Source of the DNA: Candidatus Altimarinota bacterium | GTDB taxonomy: Bacteria > Patescibacteriota > Gracilibacteria > JBDHUY01 | Direction of reading: 5' to 3' | Assembly: GCA_039809385.1 (NCBI GenBank) | Contig: JBDHUY010000005.1 | Location: forward strand, 62,254 to 126,253 | DNA length: 64,000 bases | Part shown: piece by piece, positions 226 to 12,216 of the stretch | Position numbering within the stretch: the first letter of the stretch is position 1 | Layout: every line of letters begins with the position of its first letter | Notes under the pieces: model-generated | Databases searched by the model: none | Seen by the model: the letters and a program-made list of their open reading frames with translations, nothing else | What the model was told of the DNA's origin: nothing | Made by a program: the position numbers and the translations under genes

Positions 226-936
226 ATGTCCAAGCAATCATCCGGTATGTTGCTCGTTGGTCTGCTCCTGGGAGCTAGTTTGACCTTTTCTTTTCAGTAT
301 GCGGTCGGCATCGATAAAGATCCCGAACCTTCCGGTACTGCCACACTTTCCTTAACAGCTCCCAAATCGGTCAGTGTCTTAACAAATACAGGCGGATTTA
401 CCGTTCCAACGATACTTCAATATAAACAAAACAGTTGTACTTCCTGCAGCGGACAAGATGTGGTAAATGAGATCATGATCGATGTAAACGGCGATGGGTT
501 GACCGATATCGCGAATGTGGACAAGGATCCATACACTGGAAATAATACCTATCTGAATAACGGCGACGGAACATGGGTGGTGGGAAAAGGCGTACAGGAA
601 TATGACGGCTATAACTATGTGTACCACTATACGGATATTAACGGAGATGGAAAAGTTGAGCAGCTCCAGACTCAGTGGCAGCCGAGTGGTGACGGGTATT
701 ATTTTGTTACAATTAGCGGTACGGGGCTTGTTACTAATGCAAGTGTCAAAGTTCTCTCCACTCGACCATTTGAACGTGGCTTGCATTTTATGGATGTCAA
801 TGGCGACAGTTTACCCGATATGGTCATATCCGGGTATGATTTTCAAGGATCTTCCGGCTCGAATTACCTATACAAAGCCGTATTTCTGAATACCGGAACA
901 GGCTGGGAAAAAGTGTACGAGGCAGTTGGTTCATAA
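226..936 (+). CDS. Secreted FG-GAP/VCBS-repeat (beta-propeller blade) protein
   Basis: N-terminal hydrophobic signal/anchor. Three Ca-binding DxNGDG motifs (DVNGDGLTD, DINGDGKVE, DVNGDSLPD) with YLNNGDGTW and FLNTGTGW strands. Confidence 0.8.
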   Translation: MSKQSSGMLLVGLLLGASLTFSFQYAVGIDKDPEPSGTATLSLTAPKSVSVLTNTGGFTVPTILQYKQNSCTSCSGQDVVNEIMIDVNGDGLTDIANVDKDPYTGNNTYLNNGDGTWVVGKGVQEYDGYNYVYHYTDINGDGKVEQLQTQWQPSGDGYYFVTISGTGLVTNASVKVLSTRPFERGLHFMDVNGDSLPDMVISGYDFQGSSGSNYLYKAVFLNTGTGWEKVYEAVGS

Positions 937-972
937 GCTGTAGCTACGCTTTATTCCTCTTCTTTGATTCTT

Positions 973-3900
973 ATGAACTTCTCTATACAACTACAGCGAC
1001 GTCAGGTGCGTGCCGGTTCTGTACTCCTTGTCATCCTTATCGCGCAATTGCTTTTCTCATCAACAGCTTTGGCTCAGGAAACAGGAAATATCCCCGGGGA
1101 TATCGCCCCGCCGACCGCTTCAGGATCAGAAGTGGGGACAACTACCCTTATACCGGAAGCAACTGAAATCTCAGATGAAACGGGATCAGACAGTTTTGAC
1201 GTATCTACTCACAATGCCTCTGCGGAAAAACGTCTGGAAAAGATTGCGCCGGAAACTGCGTCGGCTTCTACCGAACCTGACACGCTACCTCCTTTTAATC
1301 CGGGAGGAATAGCACACCACGCAAATCAGGGCGATACGCTGCAAGAATTCAGCGGGACCTTCAATGCCGATCTTTTTAGCGGAAGCGCATCCTTTACCTA
1401 CCCGTTGCAACTTCCCCCGGGACGGAACAATCTGACTCCGGTACTCGGCTTGCACTATTCATCGGCAAATTCACGCCCGGACAGTCTGGCCGGTTTTGGG
1501 TGGGATAGTACGTCTTCATCGATTACCAGAACAAGCAAAAAACCGATTCAGGATATTTTTACGGATACTACATTCACTTCCTCTATTTTTGGTCAAAACG
1601 AAGAACTTGTCCTGGTAAATGCGGCCACCGGCGAATACCGTCCCAAGGTAGAAGGGTCCTTTCGTATATATACCCTGAACAACAATACCTGGCTTGTGAA
1701 AGATAAAAATGGAACCGTGTATACGTTTGGCAACTCATCCGCAAGCAGACAGGATGATCCTCTGGATGCCAGCCATATCTATCAATGGATGCTCGAAAAG
1801 ATCGAAGACCGGAATGGCAATACCATGCTGTTTTCCTATACCAAAAACCAGGGATACGTCTATCCCGACACCATACGATATACCGGCAATGGGAACGACC
1901 CGGGAATATATCAAGTCCAGTTCGGATATGCCCCGCATCCCCGCCCAGTAGAGCGATATGCTACTGGTTTTTTCGTTAAGTTATCCCAGCGGTTGACTAG
2001 TATCAATATTCAGGTCAAGCATGGCGCCTCCTATGAAACGGTCAATAGCTACCAACTCTCCTATGATGATAGCGATGTGCGGGGCCTTTTGTCTCAAATC
2101 CAGATTGTCACGGCCAGTGGAACGCTTCCGCCCACTAGGTTTGGTTATACCCATGATGCTCCGGTCGGGACGCCGTATATACCGAGCGGACTTCTCCAAT
2201 TGATCCAGACTCCGTACGGAGCAAGTACTCAATTGATGTATCGGTCATCGGCGCAGTATATCGATGCTATCGGTATGAGACTGAACCCGAAATTGCCGTT
2301 TACCATGACCACGGTTGCGCAAGTAAGTACCAAAAATACTTCGGCAGATGTGCCCAAAGTTATGACATACGAATATGCCCAGGGGCATTATTTCACTGAT
2401 TTTTATGACCACACCAAACGCGAATATGCCGGATTCGGTATAGTGACGGTGAAAGATGCGGCTGGAAATGTACAAAAGAACTATTTTCATCAGAGTGAGA
2501 AAGATTTCAGCAATACAGCTGCCGCCGCTTGGGGCGAATACCAGGATCATTTGAGTAAAAAAGGGCTGATATACCGATCGGAAAGCTATGACCATGCCGG
2601 ACATCTCTATGCTGTTTCGGTCAACAAATACGATCGTACCGACTTGGGGAATGCTCGTAACTTTCCTTTCCTGGTGCAATCGGTGAGTATGAGTTACGAC
2701 GGTACCGCTACGCATCGCGACACGGCCGTCTCCTATACCTATGATGCCTATGGCAATGTTCTGACACAAAAAAATTGGGGCGAAGTGGTCGCTGACAATG
2801 CTGGTTCGTTTACCGACTTGGGAAATGATACGGTTATACGGGAGACATCGTATGCTCTCAATGCTGCCGCGTATATTACTGCACTACCCCAGCAGGTGGT
2901 TATCAAGGACGGTTCGAATAGCATCTTGCAACAACAACGTTTCTACTACGATGGATTAGCGCTGGGGGAGGTTTCAAAGGGCAATGTAACCAAACAGGAG
3001 GACTGGCTCAAGGAATCTGACCGGTTTATCCCTGTAAAACAACAGGCGTTCAACGCATTAGGGCTTCCCACATCTGTCACCGATGCCCGCGGAAAAGTTA
3101 CGGCATATACCTATGATACGTTCAATCTTTATCCATTGGCTGTTACGAACCCGCTGGGACATGGGTTCTCTTTTGTGTACGATTATGATTCCGGGAAAGT
3201 CAAAGAGACACTCGATCCTAATGGAGCCAAAACCACGAACACGTATGACAGCTTGGGAAGATTGCTCGAGACCAGAGTTACCAACCCGACCAATCCCAGC
3301 TCCCAGCTGATAGCCAGCAGTATGCAGTATTTTGATGCCGAGATTCCGGTTAGAATCGTTACAACCCAGTTTAATGGTCAACCTGGAGATGTGGGCAAAC
3401 TGACGATCAAGTTTTTCGATGGGTTCGGCCATTTGTTGCAAACCAGAAATACCGCCGAAGCAGTGAACGAGTATGCCGTTACCTCGATCCTGTATGATGA
3501 ACAGAACCGTGTGAAAAAAGAGTTGCTGCCCATATTTGAGACCGGTGCCTCCTTTACAGTTCCAAATGCTAATGCTCCGGGAAGCAGTTTCAGCTATGAT
3601 TCGCTGGATCGTGTCCTTGCCGTCAGTAATAGTCTGGGTACAACTGCAACGAGCTATGACAAATGGACCAAACTCGTAACTGACGCCAACGGTCATCAAA
3701 AGAAGTTTTATTTTGATGCTTACCAAAATCTTGTTCAGGTTGATGAAAAGAACGGATCTGCTACATACACGACCCGCTATGACTATGACCGCTTGCAAAG
3801 ATTGGCAGCGATTACCGATGCCGAAGGTAACGTTCGTAATTTTACTTATGACTCGCTCTCGAGATTACTTTCCCAGGATATGCTGCACAAGCCGACAGCT

Positions 3901-6900
3901 AACAGCTCACAGCTGACGGCTTGGAACTATACATATGATGATACCGGTAATGTTGTACAGAAGACTGATCCGAATGGCCAGGTGGTCAGCTATACTTACG
4001 ACGATTTGAACCGTCCGTTGACGGAAGATTTTGCTGGAACAGCCGGAGTGGAAGTGAGTAATGAATATGATATCGGGATCTACGCCAAGGGCAAAGTAAA
4101 CAAAGTGAGTACCGCCGGATTGGTGCAGGAATTTGGATATGGCATTTTGGGAAATCAAGAAGTCCTAACACAGCGAATTGACGGAAAGGTCTATAATACC
4201 TATACTTCATATGATCTGCTGGGGAACGTGCTGAATGTGTCTTATAATAATTTTAAGACGATCAGTTATCAGTACAACAAAGCCTATTTGATCGATCGGG
4301 TGACGGAGGGGCTCAATGTCCTGGTAGCCAATGTGGACTACAATCCGCAGGGACTCATTAGCAAAATTGATTTTGGTAACGGCACGAGTACGGTCAACAC
4401 CTACGATCCACAGAAGCTGTATCGTTTGACAAACAAAAAAACGACCAAGGGCGCGAATATTGTCTACCAGAATATCGATTATACTTACGATCCGGTTGGA
4501 AATCTGATCAATATTACCGAGAACGCTGCTACCGCGGCCCAACGCAACGCTGTATATACATATGACGATCTTGATCGGCTTCTCTCTGCGACGACGATCC
4601 GCACTGATTCTCTTTCTGCCAATCAGAATACATTTATACAAAACTTTGACCAGCTTGTGGCTGCCCGTGTAGTCGAAGGTGATGTTGTAGCAAAAGACCT
4701 GACTTCCGCTGTGACAAGCTCTGCTGTAACTTTGACCAGTCTGACCCCAGGTAGTGGCCTGGCAGGTGCAAGTATAGTGGCTTTGGGGACAAATTTTGCG
4801 CCGACTAATAACGAGGTCAATTTTGTCGGATGTCAATCCGCGACAACAATTTATGGTATCTCTTCGGCAAACGGTACAACTTTGAATTTTGCTGTCCCTT
4901 TTTCATCAAACATCTCTGATAACTGTATTGTGATGATTCGAAGTAATAACGTATTGAGCAACGGACTTCCTTTTACTATAGTGGCCAGCAACTCCAATAC
5001 AAATTCCAGTAACCAGAATCAGAATACCAATTCTCTTACCCAAACATTTAGCTATAGTCCTACTGGTAATATCCTGTCCAATTCACTTCTGGGCAACTAC
5101 GTCTATAATGGAACGTCCAACGCCAATCCCCAGGCTGTGACGCACATAGGATCGGAACGCAGCTATATGTACGATAAAAATGGGAATGTTATCGCAACAG
5201 CAAATGCCGGTGTATCTCACAACCTGCGCTATGATTATCGTAACAACATGGTCGAGTCCAGCACAGGGACAAGTGTGACCAAGTATATGTATGACGCCAG
5301 ACATGGTCGCATGAAAAAATGGAATGTTCCATCCCCCGCAGCTGTTTGGCATAATACTATTGCCGATACCGACTGGTCGAACTTGCTCGTCCAGGTCGGA
5401 GAAACGGATACAGCCACTGAGACCCCGGTTATTCTGGCGGCTGCCGTAACCGGCCCTGTAACGCTCTCCGGATTGAATCCGACCAGCGGCCCCCCCGGAA
5501 CCGTAGTAACCTTGACCGGAACAAATTTTAGCAGTACGTCCAACCGGGTCCGCATGGAATGTACGGGGACGGGCGGAGGGCAAAAAAATATAAGCGAACT
5601 ATCTTCTGCCAACGGAACCTCTCTCTCTTTTACCGTTCCAAGCAGTCTCTCGGGTTTTCAGGGAGCGTGTACGGTCAGTGCCAGAAACAGTACCGTCGCG
5701 ACCTATAGCAATGGCTTGGTCTTTACGGTGAACGGAGTCGCTACGCTTGCCGGGCTCTCGCCTGCGAGCGGACCTCCCGTTACCAATGTTACCGTCACCG
5801 GAACCAACTTCACCAGTACGGGAAATACAGTTCAAATGAAGTGTGGTACGGCCGGAGTAAAAAGTATCGCGAACCTCGTTTCCGCGAATGGTACTAGCCT
5901 CACGTTCTCTGTTCCCGCCGCATTGTCAACCTATCAGGGAAACTGTATGGTCAGTGTACGAAACAGTAAAGTCAGTCTCTATAGTGCCGAATTGCCTTTC
6001 ACGGTCAAGGGAGGCGTTACACTGTCCGGTGTAAATCCGGCTGCCGGACCGGTGGGAACGGCTGTTACGCTGGCTGGTGAAAATTTCAGCAGTACCGGAA
6101 ATACCGTCAAAATGGTGTGTAGCGGTACGGGCGGAGGAACCAAAACCATAGCTTCAATCGATTCTCCCAGCGGAACATCGGTCGTCTTTACGGTTCCGGC
6201 TACTCTGTCTGCCTTTACTGGCAATTGCAACGTGAGCGCGCGCAGTTCCGCCATTGCGACGTACAGTAACTCGCTGGTGTATAGGGTGGGGACTGTTGCC
6301 ACGAATGGGAATGGAAACAGTTCCAACCAAAACACCAATGCTCAAAACGCGAATAGCAATGGGGCTAATTCCAATATAAACAGTGGCAGTAGTAATGCTA
6401 ATGTGAACGCTTCCAATCAGAATATCAATGCAGCCAACGTTAATATAAATCTGAATGTCAACAGCCCGGCCGGTAATACAAATGCCAATATGGCAAATCA
6501 AAACCTGAACGCTCCCCAGGGAGTTCCGGTTATCTCCACGGTCACCCCCGACTCCGGTGCGGCTGGTACGCTGGTAACGCTGCATGGTTCAGGGTTTACC
6601 GCTACGGGCAATACGGTGACGTTCAAGAAGTGTTCACCTTTGTATCAGTCGGCATCTGTCTCCAATCTATCCTCGACCAATGGCACTGACCTGGTCTTTG
6701 CCATTCCCGCGACTCTGACCGAGCCGGGCCTCTGTCAGTCCCTTCTGGTCGGGAATCCCAATGGATTTAGCAACAGTGTCTCTTTTACGATCACCACAGG
6801 CACTTCAAATGTAAATACCAATCTGAATGGCAATGGGAATACCAATGGCGAGAATGGTAATACGAACGGAAACGGGGGGAACGGTAATACAAATGCTCCG

Positions 6901-8040
6901 GCCAGTAATATGACGCTCTATCTGGGGGGCTATGAGGTAGAGGGAACCGCCGATCCGAACGGTGTTTTGACAACGCAGAATCTCAAGCGGCTGAATATCA
7001 ACCTGGGGTCTGACCAGGGGGTTTCGATTGAGACCGATCTGTCCAGTAATGTGACAAGGTATGTCTATCATCATACCGATTTTCTGACCGGCGGTTCGGT
7101 GGATACCGACCAGAATGGCTATATGCTCCAGGTGCAGGATTATATGCCTTTTGGGACGAATCGGGTTGATCAGCGGTTTTCATCGTATGCGAATAAGAAG
7201 AAATTTACGGGGAAAGAGCTGGATGGCGAAAGCGGGCTGTATTACTATGGGGCGAGGTATTATGACAGCGATATTGGCCGGTGGATGGGGTTGGATCCGC
7301 TGGTACTGGGGGAGGTAAAGGAGAAGAAGATCGCGGATCTCCTGATGAATCCCCAGGAGCTAAACGGATATACGTATGTTTTGAACAATCCGCTCAAATA
7401 TGTGGATATAACGGGATTACTTACCCAAGTCATTGTTCGGTCTGCCCGAGGATTGGCTGACATTAAGGACTTTGGGCATGTGGCAATCAGTATCAATGGA
7501 AGATGTTATGATTTTTACCCTATAAGTAACGATGCAGGTAAAAATCTTACAACGGGAAATCAGATGGTTCGAAATGTAGGAACTATATCGGACTTTATTA
7601 ATGATCCAACGAATAAACCTGGTGATGTATTTTCGATATTTACCTTAAGCAGCAATATTTCTCTAGAACAAGAGAAAATGATTGAGGAGTATCTTAAGTC
7701 ATATAATCTATCAGATAATGGGTATTCGGTTGGAGGTGCTTTCATAGAGAATGGTGGCGAAGTTTGTACAACGGTAGTGATTAACGCACTTAAAGCTGGG
7801 AATGTCTCCATCCCTCGTGTGGTAGATCCAGAGGGTCTAAGAGTCAACTTAATGCTATATTATGTTGCTTCACAATTGGGGCATGTTAATAGTATTGTAA
7901 GTTCAGTAGAAATTATAACACTTAAAGAGGCTATGAAAAAATTCCAAGGCGGTATATTTACAAACATTGTTAATCCTGCTCCCATCTATGGGCCGCCTGC
8001 TCCTTCAAAGAAAGGACAGAATTCCGGCGCCTATCCATAA
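973..8040 (+). CDS. Giant secreted Rhs/YD-repeat protein (SpvB + TcdB_midN + YD shell + IPT/TIG inserts + Rhs core + C-terminal tip)
   Basis: Signal peptide ending ALA-Q. SpvB-like SGSASFTYPLQLPPGRNNLTPVLGLHYSS; midN-like REYAGFG; many YxYD repeats; Rhs core FTGKELDGESGLYYYGARYYDSDIGRW..DP..YVLNNPLKYVDITGL. Alternative TTG start at 964. Confidence 0.93.
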   Translation: MNFSIQLQRRQVRAGSVLLVILIAQLLFSSTALAQETGNIPGDIAPPTASGSEVGTTTLIPEATEISDETGSDSFDVSTHNASAEKRLEKIAPETASASTEPDTLPPFNPGGIAHHANQGDTLQEFSGTFNADLFSGSASFTYPLQLPPGRNNLTPVLGLHYSSANSRPDSLAGFGWDSTSSSITRTSKKPIQDIFTDTTFTSSIFGQNEELVLVNAATGEYRPKVEGSFRIYTLNNNTWLVKDKNGTVYTFGNSSASRQDDPLDASHIYQWMLEKIEDRNGNTMLFSYTKNQGYVYPDTIRYTGNGNDPGIYQVQFGYAPHPRPVERYATGFFVKLSQRLTSINIQVKHGASYETVNSYQLSYDDSDVRGLLSQIQIVTASGTLPPTRFGYTHDAPVGTPYIPSGLLQLIQTPYGASTQLMYRSSAQYIDAIGMRLNPKLPFTMTTVAQVSTKNTSADVPKVMTYEYAQGHYFTDFYDHTKREYAGFGIVTVKDAAGNVQKNYFHQSEKDFSNTAAAAWGEYQDHLSKKGLIYRSESYDHAGHLYAVSVNKYDRTDLGNARNFPFLVQSVSMSYDGTATHRDTAVSYTYDAYGNVLTQKNWGEVVADNAGSFTDLGNDTVIRETSYALNAAAYITALPQQVVIKDGSNSILQQQRFYYDGLALGEVSKGNVTKQEDWLKESDRFIPVKQQAFNALGLPTSVTDARGKVTAYTYDTFNLYPLAVTNPLGHGFSFVYDYDSGKVKETLDPNGAKTTNTYDSLGRLLETRVTNPTNPSSQLIASSMQYFDAEIPVRIVTTQFNGQPGDVGKLTIKFFDGFGHLLQTRNTAEAVNEYAVTSILYDEQNRVKKELLPIFETGASFTVPNANAPGSSFSYDSLDRVLAVSNSLGTTATSYDKWTKLVTDANGHQKKFYFDAYQNLVQVDEKNGSATYTTRYDYDRLQRLAAITDAEGNVRNFTYDSLSRLLSQDMLHKPTANSSQLTAWNYTYDDTGNVVQKTDPNGQVVSYTYDDLNRPLTEDFAGTAGVEVSNEYDIGIYAKGKVNKVSTAGLVQEFGYGILGNQEVLTQRIDGKVYNTYTSYDLLGNVLNVSYNNFKTISYQYNKAYLIDRVTEGLNVLVANVDYNPQGLISKIDFGNGTSTVNTYDPQKLYRLTNKKTTKGANIVYQNIDYTYDPVGNLINITENAATAAQRNAVYTYDDLDRLLSATTIRTDSLSANQNTFIQNFDQLVAARVVEGDVVAKDLTSAVTSSAVTLTSLTPGSGLAGASIVALGTNFAPTNNEVNFVGCQSATTIYGISSANGTTLNFAVPFSSNISDNCIVMIRSNNVLSNGLPFTIVASNSNTNSSNQNQNTNSLTQTFSYSPTGNILSNSLLGNYVYNGTSNANPQAVTHIGSERSYMYDKNGNVIATANAGVSHNLRYDYRNNMVESSTGTSVTKYMYDARHGRMKKWNVPSPAAVWHNTIADTDWSNLLVQVGETDTATETPVILAAAVTGPVTLSGLNPTSGPPGTVVTLTGTNFSSTSNRVRMECTGTGGGQKNISELSSANGTSLSFTVPSSLSGFQGACTVSARNSTVATYSNGLVFTVNGVATLAGLSPASGPPVTNVTVTGTNFTSTGNTVQMKCGTAGVKSIANLVSANGTSLTFSVPAALSTYQGNCMVSVRNSKVSLYSAELPFTVKGGVTLSGVNPAAGPVGTAVTLAGENFSSTGNTVKMVCSGTGGGTKTIASIDSPSGTSVVFTVPATLSAFTGNCNVSARSSAIATYSNSLVYRVGTVATNGNGNSSNQNTNAQNANSNGANSNINSGSSNANVNASNQNINAANVNINLNVNSPAGNTNANMANQNLNAPQGVPVISTVTPDSGAAGTLVTLHGSGFTATGNTVTFKKCSPLYQSASVSNLSSTNGTDLVFAIPATLTEPGLCQSLLVGNPNGFSNSVSFTITTGTSNVNTNLNGNGNTNGENGNTNGNGGNGNTNAPASNMTLYLGGYEVEGTADPNGVLTTQNLKRLNINLGSDQGVSIETDLSSNVTRYVYHHTDFLTGGSVDTDQNGYMLQVQDYMPFGTNRVDQRFSSYANKKKFTGKELDGESGLYYYGARYYDSDIGRWMGLDPLVLGEVKEKKIADLLMNPQELNGYTYVLNNPLKYVDITGLLTQVIVRSARGLADIKDFGHVAISINGRCYDFYPISNDAGKNLTTGNQMVRNVGTISDFINDPTNKPGDVFSIFTLSSNISLEQEKMIEEYLKSYNLSDNGYSVGGAFIENGGEVCTTVVINALKAGNVSIPRVVDPEGLRVNLMLYYVASQLGHVNSIVSSVEIITLKEAMKKFQGGIFTNIVNPAPIYGPPAPSKKGQNSGAYP
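6300..6510 (+). repeat. Asn-rich low-complexity linker inside the Rhs gene (similar tracts at about 4985-5030 and 6805-6905)
   Basis: Translation such as NGNGNSSNQNTNAQNANSNGANSNINSGSSNANVNASNQNINAANVNINLNVNS. Confidence 0.85.
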
Positions 8041-8349: not shown

Positions 8350-9078
8350 TTATCTTTCCGGCCCTCTTCTAAAATCAATGTCAACAATGCCGACATTCAC
8401 TCGCAAATCAAGAGCTCTGGTTAGCGCCGGGTAGGCGCGTCCTTCCATAATCGTTTGTGTTAAAACATCCAACTTCCCCATACCCGGATACAGTATGGCG
8501 GTGTAGTAGACAGGATTTTCTAATGTTCTTATTCCGCCGACAAAATATGGCAATTCATGCAGAATGTATAGGGCGACAGCTTCAAGTCTTTTTATCTCCG
8601 GACTTCTTCCTCTGCCCTCGACAATATTTTTGGCAATTTCCAGCACACTGTGGTAAAAATCCGATTGCCTGGAGAACTCCCTGAAGAATATTTCCCGTCT
8701 TTTGATACACACAGGATCGCACGTTTCGTCATAATTTGCTACGGTAATCTTTGCTTGTTGCTTCACAGGAAGCCTTAACACGATCGCGGTAATAGTATCT
8801 TTCATCCTGTCTTCATCCGCAAAAGCCCGCCTCAGTGATTCAGCTCTGCCGAATTTTTCAAAGTAGTAATAGTTGGTGGCTTGTATTCTTCCCGGTACCC
8901 AGATAAGGATTTTCTCTTTTGTGTATTGTAGCGCAAAATCGAGCATGGCCCTGATATGTTCTGAATCGAATAGCCTATTTGAAAGGCTAATACCGATCCA
9001 TATATTATGTCTACGTGCATATATTTCTTCGAGATGGATGCCCATACTTGTCATCGCGTTGACTTGGAATTTTGACAT
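8350..9078 (-). CDS. tRNA-dependent cyclodipeptide synthase (CDPS)
   Basis: CDPS catalytic motifs in the expected order: IGISLSNRLF (catalytic Ser, Asn), YILHELP (YxxxExP), LYPG. Length of 242 aa is typical. Confidence 0.85.
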   Translation of the reverse strand: MSKFQVNAMTSMGIHLEEIYARRHNIWIGISLSNRLFDSEHIRAMLDFALQYTKEKILIWVPGRIQATNYYYFEKFGRAESLRRAFADEDRMKDTITAIVLRLPVKQQAKITVANYDETCDPVCIKRREIFFREFSRQSDFYHSVLEIAKNIVEGRGRSPEIKRLEAVALYILHELPYFVGGIRTLENPVYYTAILYPGMGKLDVLTQTIMEGRAYPALTRALDLRVNVGIVDIDFRRGPER

Positions 9079-9672: not shown

Positions 9673-11598
9673 ATGCTTTCCGCTCTCGATATTCAGCAGC
9701 GATTCCTCCGCTTTTTCGGCGAGGCGCCCCGCGACCACAAACGTATTCCGAATGTTTCTTTGGTTCCGCATAACGATCCGTCTTTGCTTTTCGTCAATTC
9801 GGGCATGTTTCCCCTGGTTCCGTATTTATCCGGCGAACCGCACCCGCTGGGAAAACGGCTCTGCAATTTTCAGCGTAGTATCCGGACCATGGCCGAGGAT
9901 CTGGAGGAGATCGGCGATGCCCGCCATACCACCTGTTTTAACATGATGGGCAACTGGAGTCTGGGCGATTTCTGGAAAACCGAGCAGATTCCCTGGATCG
10001 CCGAATTATATATCAAAGAGTTCGGTCTGGATATCAACCGCTTCTTCGTTTCTGTCTTTAAAGGCGATACCGATGCTCCCCGCGATGACGACGCCATCGA
10101 GATGTGGAAAAAAGTCTTTGCCCAATATGGCATCGAAGCTCAGGTGAGCGACGACCCTTACGACGTCATGAAAAATTATGACAACAGCGGTAATCTTTTG
10201 CCAGATCAGTCGAAGTCCTATCGAATCTTTGCCTATGAAAAGAAGAAAAACTGGTGGCAGCGCGGCCATGCGGCCGGTGAGCTCGGAGGTCCTTCGAGTG
10301 AAATGTTTTACGATTGCGGGGCTCCGCTCGAGGGCGAGTATAAAAATGCCTATCATATCAATGACGACAGCGGCAAATTCATCGAGGTTGGTAACAACGT
10401 TTTCATGGAATATTACCTCGATGAGGGTTTGAAATGGCAGAAGCTCAAGCAGCGCAATATCGACTTTGGCGGCGGGTTTGAACGGGTAGTTTTTTGCACC
10501 CAGAACAAGATGGACATTTTCGACACCGAACTCTATTTACCGGCTATTCAGGTTATCGAACAGCTTTCAGGTTTGAAATACCACGATCTGTCTGAAACGG
10601 CCAAAAAGCCGTTCCGGGTAATTGTCGACCATATTCGCGCCGCGACGTTCATCATGGGCGACGAAGTCCTGCCGAGTAACAAGGAACAGGGGTATATCTT
10701 GCGCCGCTTTATTCGGCGTGCGATCAACTTTGGCAGAAAGTTGAATCTGGACAAAGGCTTTACCGGAGAGGTGGGGGCCCGGTTTGTAGACATACTGACA
10801 CAGTTTGACGACTATGTTTTTTTGAAGGAGAAAAAGGAAATGATTGTGGCCGAACTGCTTAAAGAAGAAGACAAGTTTCATAAAACCCTGTCGCAGGGGA
10901 TTCGCGAACTGGACAAATATCTGTCTACGAGTCCAACGTTGTCGGGGGAGCAGGCATTTTATATTTTTGAAACGTTCGGTTTTCCGTTTGATCTGATTGT
11001 GGACGAGCTAATTAGTCGTGCGATTCCTTTTGACTGGAACAACCTTGAAGCCGATTTTAAAAAGGCTATGCAGCAGCACCGCGCTCAAAGTAATGCCGGA
11101 GCCGAACATGTCTTTAAGGGCGGGCTGGCCGACACCAAGGTTGAGACAACCCGGCTGCATACGACGCACCATATTTTACTGGCGACGTTACGCAAAATCT
11201 TGGGGCCGCATGTCCATCAGCGAGGGAGCAATATTACGGCGGAGCGGCTGCGGATGGATTTTTCGCATACCGAAAAAATGACGCCCGAGCAGCTGCAAAT
11301 TACCGAGGATATGGTGAATGAGGTTATTTCGAAAGACTATACTATGGTCCGCCGCGAGATGAAGTTTGACGAGGCGGTCAACCAGGGCGCCGAGATGGAA
11401 TTTGGACAAAAATATGGCGATGTCGTGTCTGTCTACTTTCTCGAGGATGCCGAGGGTAATGCCTTCAGCAAGGAGTTTTGCGGCGGGCCGCATGTCCAAC
11501 ATACGTCCGAAATTCGCGAGGGCGGGAGGTTCAAGATTATGAAGGAAGAGGCGGTGGGGAGCGGGGTGAGGAGGATTAAGGGGGTGTTGGTTAAGTAA
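9673..11598 (+). CDS. alaS: Alanine--tRNA ligase (short form, no C-Ala domain)
   Basis: LVPHNDPSLLFVNSGMFPL, RHTTCFNMMGNWSLGDF, DHIRAATF; editing motifs HTTHH and CGGPH; ends after GVRRIKG. Confidence 0.97.
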   Translation: MLSALDIQQRFLRFFGEAPRDHKRIPNVSLVPHNDPSLLFVNSGMFPLVPYLSGEPHPLGKRLCNFQRSIRTMAEDLEEIGDARHTTCFNMMGNWSLGDFWKTEQIPWIAELYIKEFGLDINRFFVSVFKGDTDAPRDDDAIEMWKKVFAQYGIEAQVSDDPYDVMKNYDNSGNLLPDQSKSYRIFAYEKKKNWWQRGHAAGELGGPSSEMFYDCGAPLEGEYKNAYHINDDSGKFIEVGNNVFMEYYLDEGLKWQKLKQRNIDFGGGFERVVFCTQNKMDIFDTELYLPAIQVIEQLSGLKYHDLSETAKKPFRVIVDHIRAATFIMGDEVLPSNKEQGYILRRFIRRAINFGRKLNLDKGFTGEVGARFVDILTQFDDYVFLKEKKEMIVAELLKEEDKFHKTLSQGIRELDKYLSTSPTLSGEQAFYIFETFGFPFDLIVDELISRAIPFDWNNLEADFKKAMQQHRAQSNAGAEHVFKGGLADTKVETTRLHTTHHILLATLRKILGPHVHQRGSNITAERLRMDFSHTEKMTPEQLQITEDMVNEVISKDYTMVRREMKFDEAVNQGAEMEFGQKYGDVVSVYFLEDAEGNAFSKEFCGGPHVQHTSEIREGGRFKIMKEEAVGSGVRRIKGVLVK

Positions 11599-11673
11599 TG
11601 AGTGCTATATTTATTTATCGTGACTATTAAAGGCGACAATGATAAATTGTTGCTGTTATTTATAAACATGTAT

Positions 11674-12216
11674 ATGAAAAAATTGTTCATTGCTCTGTTG
11701 CTTGTCAGTGTATTGTTTACAACTGCATGTAATACACGAACTTCCTCTTCAAAAAATTTAGATTCAACCGCGTCGACCCTTCATGCAATCAATCAAGACT
11801 ATGTCGCAGATCATGAAAATGTGTATTATAGCTTAGGTGGTGCTGATCCAAAGACATTTCGGCTTTTGGATCAAGATTATGCCCGAGATAAAAATACAAT
11901 ATTTTACCATGGCAGGCGGCTCTCTCAGGTCGATCCTGATTCTTTTGTTGTTCAAAATGAAATTGCCCGGGATAAAAACTCGGTCTTTTTTGACGGTATG
12001 CCTATGGACGGTCCTGACCCCCTCAGTTTTGAGAGCCTGGGTGCAGCAACTTCTTTCTATAAAGACAAAAATGCTGTATATATGCTCATGGGGCAACAGC
12101 AAATTCTGCATAAGGTCATCGGGGCCAATCCTACAACATTTAGAGTCCCTCAGGATAATGGTCTTCCTCCTGATGAACTTCATTATTCCTATGAAGAAGT
12201 AAAAGTGAAAAATTAA
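11674..12216 (+). CDS. DKNYY-repeat lipoprotein
   Basis: Lipobox LFTTAC; repeated ADPKTF / ARDKNTIFY / ARDKNSVFF / YKDKNAVY units. Confidence 0.8.
   Translation: MKKLFIALLLVSVLFTTACNTRTSSSKNLDSTASTLHAINQDYVADHENVYYSLGGADPKTFRLLDQDYARDKNTIFYHGRRLSQVDPDSFVVQNEIARDKNSVFFDGMPMDGPDPLSFESLGAATSFYKDKNAVYMLMGQQQILHKVIGANPTTFRVPQDNGLPPDELHYSYEEVKVKN

Follow-up and report, generated by a model that had tools for sequence, protein, structure and literature searches.

The YD shell of Rhs proteins is one up-and-down sheet that spirals (PMC5851990), and the connections within a sheet of this kind are all turns located at the strip's edge, so that a domain can be added there with the sheet left unbroken. 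In the mosquito salivary protein SGS1 (PDB 8FJP), a CBM, a lectin-CRD, a wedge and propeller-2 are inserted in the Rhs/YD sequence and decorate the exterior of the shell, all four being putative receptor domains and two of them (the CBM and the lectin-CRD) Ig-like (PMC9935623). In YenB/YenC2, the YD domain accommodates an inserted propeller (PMC5851990), and bacterial teneurin-like and other Rhs proteins combine a YD shell with beta-sandwich adhesion domains (PMC6425310; bioRxiv 2025.11.11.687626). The SpvB-RHS polymorphic toxins belonging to the TcdB/TcaC export pathway are described as a signal peptide followed by SpvB, RHS and a variable toxin (Zhang et al. 2012, PMC3482391). Here we describe an Rhs/YD cocoon toxin gene carried by a 64,000-nucleotide stretch of DNA (the window) from Candidatus Altimarinota bacterium (GenBank assembly GCA_039809385.1, contig JBDHUY010000005.1, positions 62,254 to 126,253 of the forward strand), whose product, P0001, carries five IPT/TIG domains within two loops of its YD shell. 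On balance we favour, with some reserve, the view that P0001 is a secreted cocoon toxin whose TIG excursions lie outside the shell and serve as binding modules.

A search of PDB sequences with P0001 returned TcdB2-TccC3, YenC2, RhsA, Tse5, Tse15 and SGS1, the Rhs core of the latter aligning to P0001 amino acids (aa) 2051-2113. SGS1 and P0001 are alike in having an Rhs/YD shell whose YD sequence is interrupted by segments that encode Ig-like domains. They differ in several respects: SGS1 is a eukaryotic protein (mosquito saliva) of bacterial descent, its cargo is different (transmembrane helices and Tox-SGS) and its inserts are single CBM/lectin domains in mid-shell, whereas those of P0001 are TIG arrays with Asn-rich stalks, placed close to the C-terminal end. 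P0001 shares with the TcB-TcC cocoons (TcdB2-TccC3, YenB-YenC2) the succession of SpvB, TcdB_midN, YD shell, Rhs core and C-terminal toxin, but unlike them it is one polypeptide with a signal peptide, and Pfam finds no FG-GAP propeller between SpvB and TcdB_midN, where homologs P0004, P0009 and P0018 have it, or elsewhere in the protein. Ig-like inserts such as those of P0001 are not reported for the solved TcB-TcC cocoons. In the teneurin-like proteins the adhesion domains precede the shell and are accompanied by TTR, FN-plug and NHL, none of which has a Pfam match in P0001 (E<=0.01). With the TcdB/TcaC class P0001 has in common the signal peptide, SpvB, RHS repeats and a variable C-terminal toxin, but an integrin-like propeller forms part of the definition of the class and is absent from P0001, and the passages of PMC3482391 consulted contain no mention of inserts in the RHS region. 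P0001 would therefore seem to be a Sec-exported, single-chain (BC-fusion) polymorphic Rhs toxin of TcdB/TcaC type, its signal peptide being read by eye. It is a rarer bacterial version of the decorated YD shell already solved in SGS1, and its architecture is not new in principle.

The features of the gene and of its upstream neighbour are listed below (window positions; the first letter of the window is position 1).

964..8040, + strand: Rhs/YD cocoon toxin gene, a single open frame of 2358 aa (P0001) starting with TTG at 964
973, + strand: start ATG of the database record of the same protein (P0002, 2355 aa)
973..1074, + strand: signal-peptide-like N-terminus, by-eye reading (MNFSIQLQRRQVRAG, a hydrophobic stretch, then ALA|QE)
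1378..1851, + strand: SpvB domain, aa 139-296 (Pfam, 65.8 bits)
2017..2481, + strand: TcdB_toxin_midN, aa 352-506 (Pfam, 44.7 bits)
2641..4593, + strand: first part of the YD-repeat shell, about aa 560-1210, terminating in YTYDDLDRLLSAT
4594..5037, + strand: insert 1, aa 1211-1358, 148 aa (42-aa leader, T1, 13-aa Asn-rich return linker)
4720..4998, + strand: T1, TIG-like, aa 1253-1345, with Cys 1290 and 1321 (match to the T2-T5 model)
5038..5319, + strand: shell segment separating the inserts, aa 1359-1452 (68% identity to paralog P0003)
5320..6909, + strand: insert 2, aa 1453-1982, 530 aa (44-aa leader, T2-T3-T4, 75-aa Asn-rich linker, T5, 36-aa Asn-rich linker)
5452-5733, + strand: T2, tandem TIG with one Cys pair (Pfam, 28.7 bits alone)
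5734-6009, + strand: T3, tandem TIG with one Cys pair (Pfam, 32.3 bits alone)
6010-6294, + strand: T4, tandem TIG with one Cys pair (53-62% identity to T2/T3)
6520..6801, + strand: T5, TIG, aa 1853-1946, with Cys 1890 and 1924 (Pfam, 25.6 bits alone)
6910..7419, + strand: last shell strands and Rhs-associated core, aa 1983-2152 (with TIGR03696 at 2060-2152), finishing with YVDITGL
7420..8040, + strand: C-terminal variable toxin module, aa 2153-2358, 206 aa, matching no family
226..936, + strand: secreted-looking FG-GAP-repeat protein of 236 aa (FG-GAP_3, 36.7 bits), tentatively a member of the system

The shell is recognised by PF05593 RHS_repeat (112.6 bits, 5 stretches) and TIGR01643 (77.7 bits), and the Rhs-associated core by TIGR03696 (68.6 bits for a cut-off of 32.5), located ahead of the toxin. 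The identification of the inserted domains rests on the following: (i), the Pfam TIG model (PF01833) scores 60.8 bits on insert 2 (cut-off 20.9) over four stretches, and T2, T3 and T5 each clear its gathering score when scanned singly. (ii), a hidden Markov model (HMM) built from T2-T5 only recovers T1 (aa 1254-1339, E=1.3e-15). (iii), the five domains show 33-62% pairwise identity, T2-T4 being 53-62% identical and T1 and T5 33-43% identical to the rest and, (iv), one Cys pair is aligned in all five. The first-pass annotation of the window had proposed five IPT/TIG domains in two shell loops, the four of the second loop each with a Cys pair and with Asn-rich linkers, and this is what Pfam and the HMM recover, with T1 in insert 1, T2-T5 in insert 2 and an Asn content of 37-42% in the three linkers. 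Its landmarks for the breaks and resumptions of the YD pattern are also found where it had placed them: YTYDDLDRLLSAT at aa 1198-1210 (nucleotides (nt) 4555-4593), TQTFSYSPTGN at aa 1359-1369 (nt 5038-5070), YMYDARHGRMKK at aa 1441-1452 (nt 5284-5319) and the last resumption at MTLYLGGYEVEG, aa 1983 (nt 6910). That resumption had been put just before the Rhs core, which needs amending, since about 77 aa of shell (1983-2059) precede TIGR03696. Each insert opens with a leader of 42-44 aa that is neither TIG nor Asn-rich, and insert 2 has no match among PDB sequences at E<=0.01. The cysteines of P0001 are distributed very unevenly: ten of the twelve form the five TIG pairs, two are in the toxin and none is found in the approximately 1500 aa of shell and core. 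This distribution is an extracytoplasmic signature, such pairs being typical of exposed extracytoplasmic domains.

The same genome (1.87 Mb, 26 contigs, 95% complete) encodes a paralog, P0003 (1680 aa, G000:C1:149438-154480, 53-67% identity), that is without both inserts. P0003 is collinear with P0001 at residues 51-1210 (53% identity), 1358-1459 (66%) and 1983-2157 (67%), and because it aligns in this manner without either insert, both shell breaks are true insertions. At the insertion points, site 1 of P0003 consists of the 10 residues ITNTNNNTNV and site 2 of about 7 residues, and the difference in length between the two proteins, 678 aa, is the sum of both inserts. The segments flanking the inserts are 63-69% identical to P0003 and are the best-conserved parts relative to the paralog. 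These alignments show five Ig-like domains lodged at two positions between strands of a shell that is well conserved and otherwise intact.

That the arrangement reflects a chimeric assembly, or that the gene is decaying, is very improbable. The sequence does come from a metagenome assembly of low depth (2-6x in the runs examined), but the 7 kb frame is open, collinearity with the paralog is regained after each insert, the nearest other TIG genes of the genome are only 32-50% identical at the protein level and, as described below, relatives hold inserts at the same loops. The TIG copies themselves have diverged from one another and form no tandem DNA repeat. A chimera, for which the first-pass annotation had proposed read mapping as a test, also finds no support at three of the four junctions, which are bridged by contigs of other sequencing runs with 0 differences: nt 4594 (runs X2, X3 and X6), nt 5037 (X2, X3, X5 and X6) and nt 6909 (X2, X3 and X5), X5 and X6 belonging to a study other than that of the possible source sample. 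The fourth junction, nt 5320, lacks a contig from another run, as nt ~5196-5496 are without contig in the four runs examined; this gap is a hole in low-depth contigs and is not evidence against the junction.

A working scheme for the decorated cocoon may be suggested. Judging by the family, a closed beta-sheet cocoon would be formed of SpvB, TcdB_midN and the YD repeats, and the Rhs core would plug it and cleave off the 206-aa C-terminal toxin, to be retained inside. As the alignment shows, each of the two insertion points carries an excursion formed by a leader of about 43 aa, one or four TIG domains and Asn-rich return linkers, and these excursions are predicted to project outward from the shell. 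Because both ends of a linear Ig array must meet at one turn, it needs an outward and a return path, which the leader and the Asn-rich linkers would supply. The excursions may act as binding modules that fix the loaded cocoon either on the surface of a target or host or on the envelope of the producer, with the CBM and lectin-CRD of the SGS1 shell as analogues. If a residue is taken as about 110 Da and each Da as 1.21 A3, the 678 inserted residues and the 206-aa toxin would together need roughly 117 nm3 of solid protein. The teneurin shell, which is larger, encloses about 130 nm3 (PMC6425310), and it is from this comparison and from the external domains of SGS1 that we infer the outward projection. 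That the TIG domains are instead extra cargo folded inside the cocoon is hardly credible: the volume estimate, the Cys pairs typical of exposed domains and the external position of the inserted domains in the SGS1 and TcB precedents all argue against it.

How widespread are inserts in the shell? Relatives of P0001 were collected by a word-based search with P0001 aa 1100-2160 and by a full HMMER scan in which aa 1001-1479 of the insert-less P0003 were run against 1.84 billion representatives, giving 225 other proteins. The 164 with recognisable flanks on three sides were evaluated, and the 61 without one flank are not in the counts. Length differences were placed by a chain of eight short block HMMs (B), checked by eye, and extra YD repeats were filtered out; P0170, P0082, P0071 and P0084 and the loci L040 and L053 were left aside because they are ambiguous or represent extra YD repeats. 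Two other procedures for placing insertion points were dropped: a pairwise aligner with cheap gap extension, which scattered the positions, and hmmalign, which forced 48 inserts into one variable region, that of P0001 included, contradicting the 67%-identical P0003 alignment.

Fifty of the 164 relatives have at least one non-YD insert of at least 40 aa within the last ~250 residues of the shell. By interval, inserts were placed in two relatives at site 1 (B1-B2), in one at B2-B3, in five each at B3-B4, B4-B5 and site 2 (B5-B6), and in 29 at B6-B7 or B6-B8, from the YLGDYEIEG strand to the YHHTDHL motif; for five relatives the interval is unresolved. Variable cargo at the two positions occupied in P0001, which the first-pass annotation had suggested looking for, is indeed found. 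At site 1, Pfam identifies DUF11 in P0004 and LamG in P0191, and the homolog in the only same-family genome available (G001) has, by eye, a DUF11-like insert of ~200 aa there, whereas its site 2 is empty. Site 2 holds inserts of 160-552 aa in P0122, P0209, P0120, P0131 and P0161, and a Ca. Peribacteria locus (L047, 4126-5709) has a 528-aa insert exactly there that contains a subtilase (Peptidase_S8, 139 bits). Within its SpvB-type Rhs shell, the latter would be a displayed enzyme and not a binding domain. Pfam further identifies DUF2341 with LamG (P0132, P0157) or LamG alone (P0215) at B3-B4 and Ig_3/I-set in P0018 at B4-B5, one loop upstream of site 2, and in the B6-B8 zone P0207 has LamG and P0165 six Cys-rich motifs of MopE type. 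The TIG-in-shell arrangement is unique within this sample, and cargo in the shell is common. It had been stated that accessory domains normally lie N-terminal to the shell: this stands for TIG, since all 19 other proteins of the set that combine TIG with a full YD shell have it N-terminal to the first YD motif, but not for shell inserts in general, which are not exceptional given the 50 relatives and the SGS1 and YenB/YenC2 precedents. A literature search of partial coverage found no description of domains inserted in Rhs toxin shells of Patescibacteria.

The survey bears on whether the inserts could be tolerated decoration without specific binding, adding bulk, solubility or protease shielding after recombination in Asn-rich loops. 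In its favour, the cargo of the relatives is highly heterogeneous and partly low-complexity, the inserts of P0001 finish in Asn-rich runs just as the site 1 loop of P0003 is Asn-rich, and the TIG form is known from one genome. We nevertheless consider this explanation quite unlikely, because the TIG pattern and both Cys are kept at identities as low as 33-62%, which argues for selection on the fold, and because the flanking shell is the part best conserved with respect to the paralog.

The TIG cassettes have counterparts in the genome itself. A tblastn search with T1-T5 found TIG domains of 32-50% identity on contig C6 and weaker partial matches on C15 and C9. The C6 region (G000:C6:93246-104453) encodes three neighbouring TIG-rich surface proteins of 860-1117 aa with N-terminal hydrophobic segments and a membrane- or wall-anchored appearance, whose TIG domains are 40-50% identical to the T domains and are separated by Asn/Gly-rich linkers. 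One of them has the same Cys pair and terminates in LPKTG, a hydrophobic stretch and KKKK, and a sortase gene is present in the genome. By eye, one C6 protein also has Cys-rich EGF-like stretches and dockerin-like repeats. Since the cassettes are of the same kind as the surface proteins of the genome, they were probably recruited from within it; the similarity is what we observe, the direction is what we infer. Recombination through low-complexity Asn codons is a plausible route of insertion because the site 1 loop of the paralog is itself Asn-rich, and a search for direct repeats flanking the inserts found only Asn-codon low complexity.

The same likeness can be turned to another explanation, namely that the TIG arrays tether or space the cocoon on the surface of the producer (e.g. 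through Ig-Ig contacts with the C6 proteins, or on the wall), for presentation on contact and not for release. Besides the shared type of cassette and anchored surface protein, it would account for an Rhs protein that has a signal peptide (by eye) but no anchor of its own, and for long Asn-rich linkers that resemble spacers. However, the LamG lectin-type domains and the one subtilase that relatives carry in the same zone fit a foreign surface better, and we regard the producer tether as rather unlikely.

The view that P0001 is a secreted cocoon displaying its TIG domains as binding modules also has to accommodate several observations that weigh against it. T4 alone and insert 1 as a whole have no Pfam match at E<=1, and a VKOR-type disulfide enzyme was not found in the 95% complete genome. 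No insert of the other relatives matches the TIG HMM, the insert region is unmatched in 40 of 40 related genomes and the database record P0002 is a cluster of one, so that the TIG-decorated form is seen in one genome only and there is no evidence of its conservation among the relatives and genomes searched. With regard to the toxin, the 206-aa module matches no family in Pfam (E<=1), NCBIfam or an extended protein search, and an immunity gene is not evident 3' of the toxin on the same strand. The autoproteolysis motifs of such proteins are the RYYD...DP aspartates and a DPxGL cleavage site, and P0001 contains ARYYDSDIGRWMGLDP, but its end reads VDITGL where the family alignment consensus has DPxG, the motif DITGL departing from that consensus.

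Against PDB sequences, the toxin module gave chance-level rows only. Its G+C content at third codon positions is 0.30, versus 0.61 in the adjacent core, as expected for a swapped polymorphic tip. The tip of P0003 is a Ribonuclease (PF00545) by precomputed annotation, and the paralogs therefore differ in toxin as well as in shell. Another three Rhs-core pieces occur in the genome (open frames of 357, 337 and 114 aa, at G000:C21:1463-3541 and G000:C4:654-923), with 54-73% identity to the P0001 core and the appearance of orphan cassettes, each a core with a toxin, that serve the exchange of tips. As to possible partners, the TcA families PF18276 and PF03538 were not found in the genome (G000, 95% complete), and control genomes also gave no match. 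The 236-aa open reading frame (ORF) directly upstream of the Rhs gene has, in addition to its FG-GAP repeats, a sub-threshold TcdB_midN match, and upstream of P0003 there is a shorter counterpart (G000:C1, about 148679-149149) that has one FG-GAP-like repeat. Relatives have the propeller within the protein and neither of the two paralogs does, so that the upstream FG-GAP protein is possibly a detached propeller turned into a separate gene.

On the other side of the toxin gene and convergent with it, a 242-aa ORF (8350-9078, - strand) matches the cyclodipeptide synthases (PF16715, 37.2 bits); it adjoins an alanyl-tRNA synthetase gene (9673-11598), which is immediately followed by a 204-aa ORF of the DKNYY family (11602-12216, + strand, 76.3 bits). 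The alanyl-tRNA synthetase has its nearest matches among sequences labelled Patescibacteria group (60%), Doudnabacteria and Dojkabacteria, a similarity that places the lineage near Patescibacteria, and the nearest Rhs cores in named genomes are found in metagenome-assembled genomes of Peribacteria, Patescibacteria, Komeilibacteria and Parcubacteria. Related genomes measure 0.7-2.0 Mb. From what the literature describes, an epibiotic lifestyle is plausible for such lineages. The first-pass annotation had read P0001 as an adhesin-toxin hybrid suited to an epibiont that attaches to a host cell, which is a candidate role.

It is tempting to speculate, although we hold the generalisation to be doubtful, that the turns of the last shell layer form a general plug-in display platform for swappable modules in TcB/TcC-type Rhs proteins of Patescibacteria and other uncultured lineages, giving a free-standing cocoon its own targeting, in place of the receptor binding that TcA performs in Tc toxins, and loaded, in the present case, from the adhesin repertoire of the cell. 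The cargo of such a platform would comprise TIG arrays, DUF11, LamG lectins, Ig, MopE repeats and a subtilase. As regards how Rhs cocoons without a type VI or type VII secretion system or a TcA partner find and enter a target, P0001 and its relatives point to specific shell loops where targeting modules may be installed and exchanged. P0001 and P0003 constitute a natural pair with and without inserts in one genome, which makes the question testable. The main value of the finding lies in the bacterial distribution of decorated shells and in the pattern of swappable cargo at defined loops. The factors by which Patescibacteria attach to their hosts are poorly known, and here a family of TIG domains with Asn-rich linkers is common to surface proteins and a toxin. 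If the platform exists, this organism would rely on shared recognition modules for attaching and for delivering the toxin.

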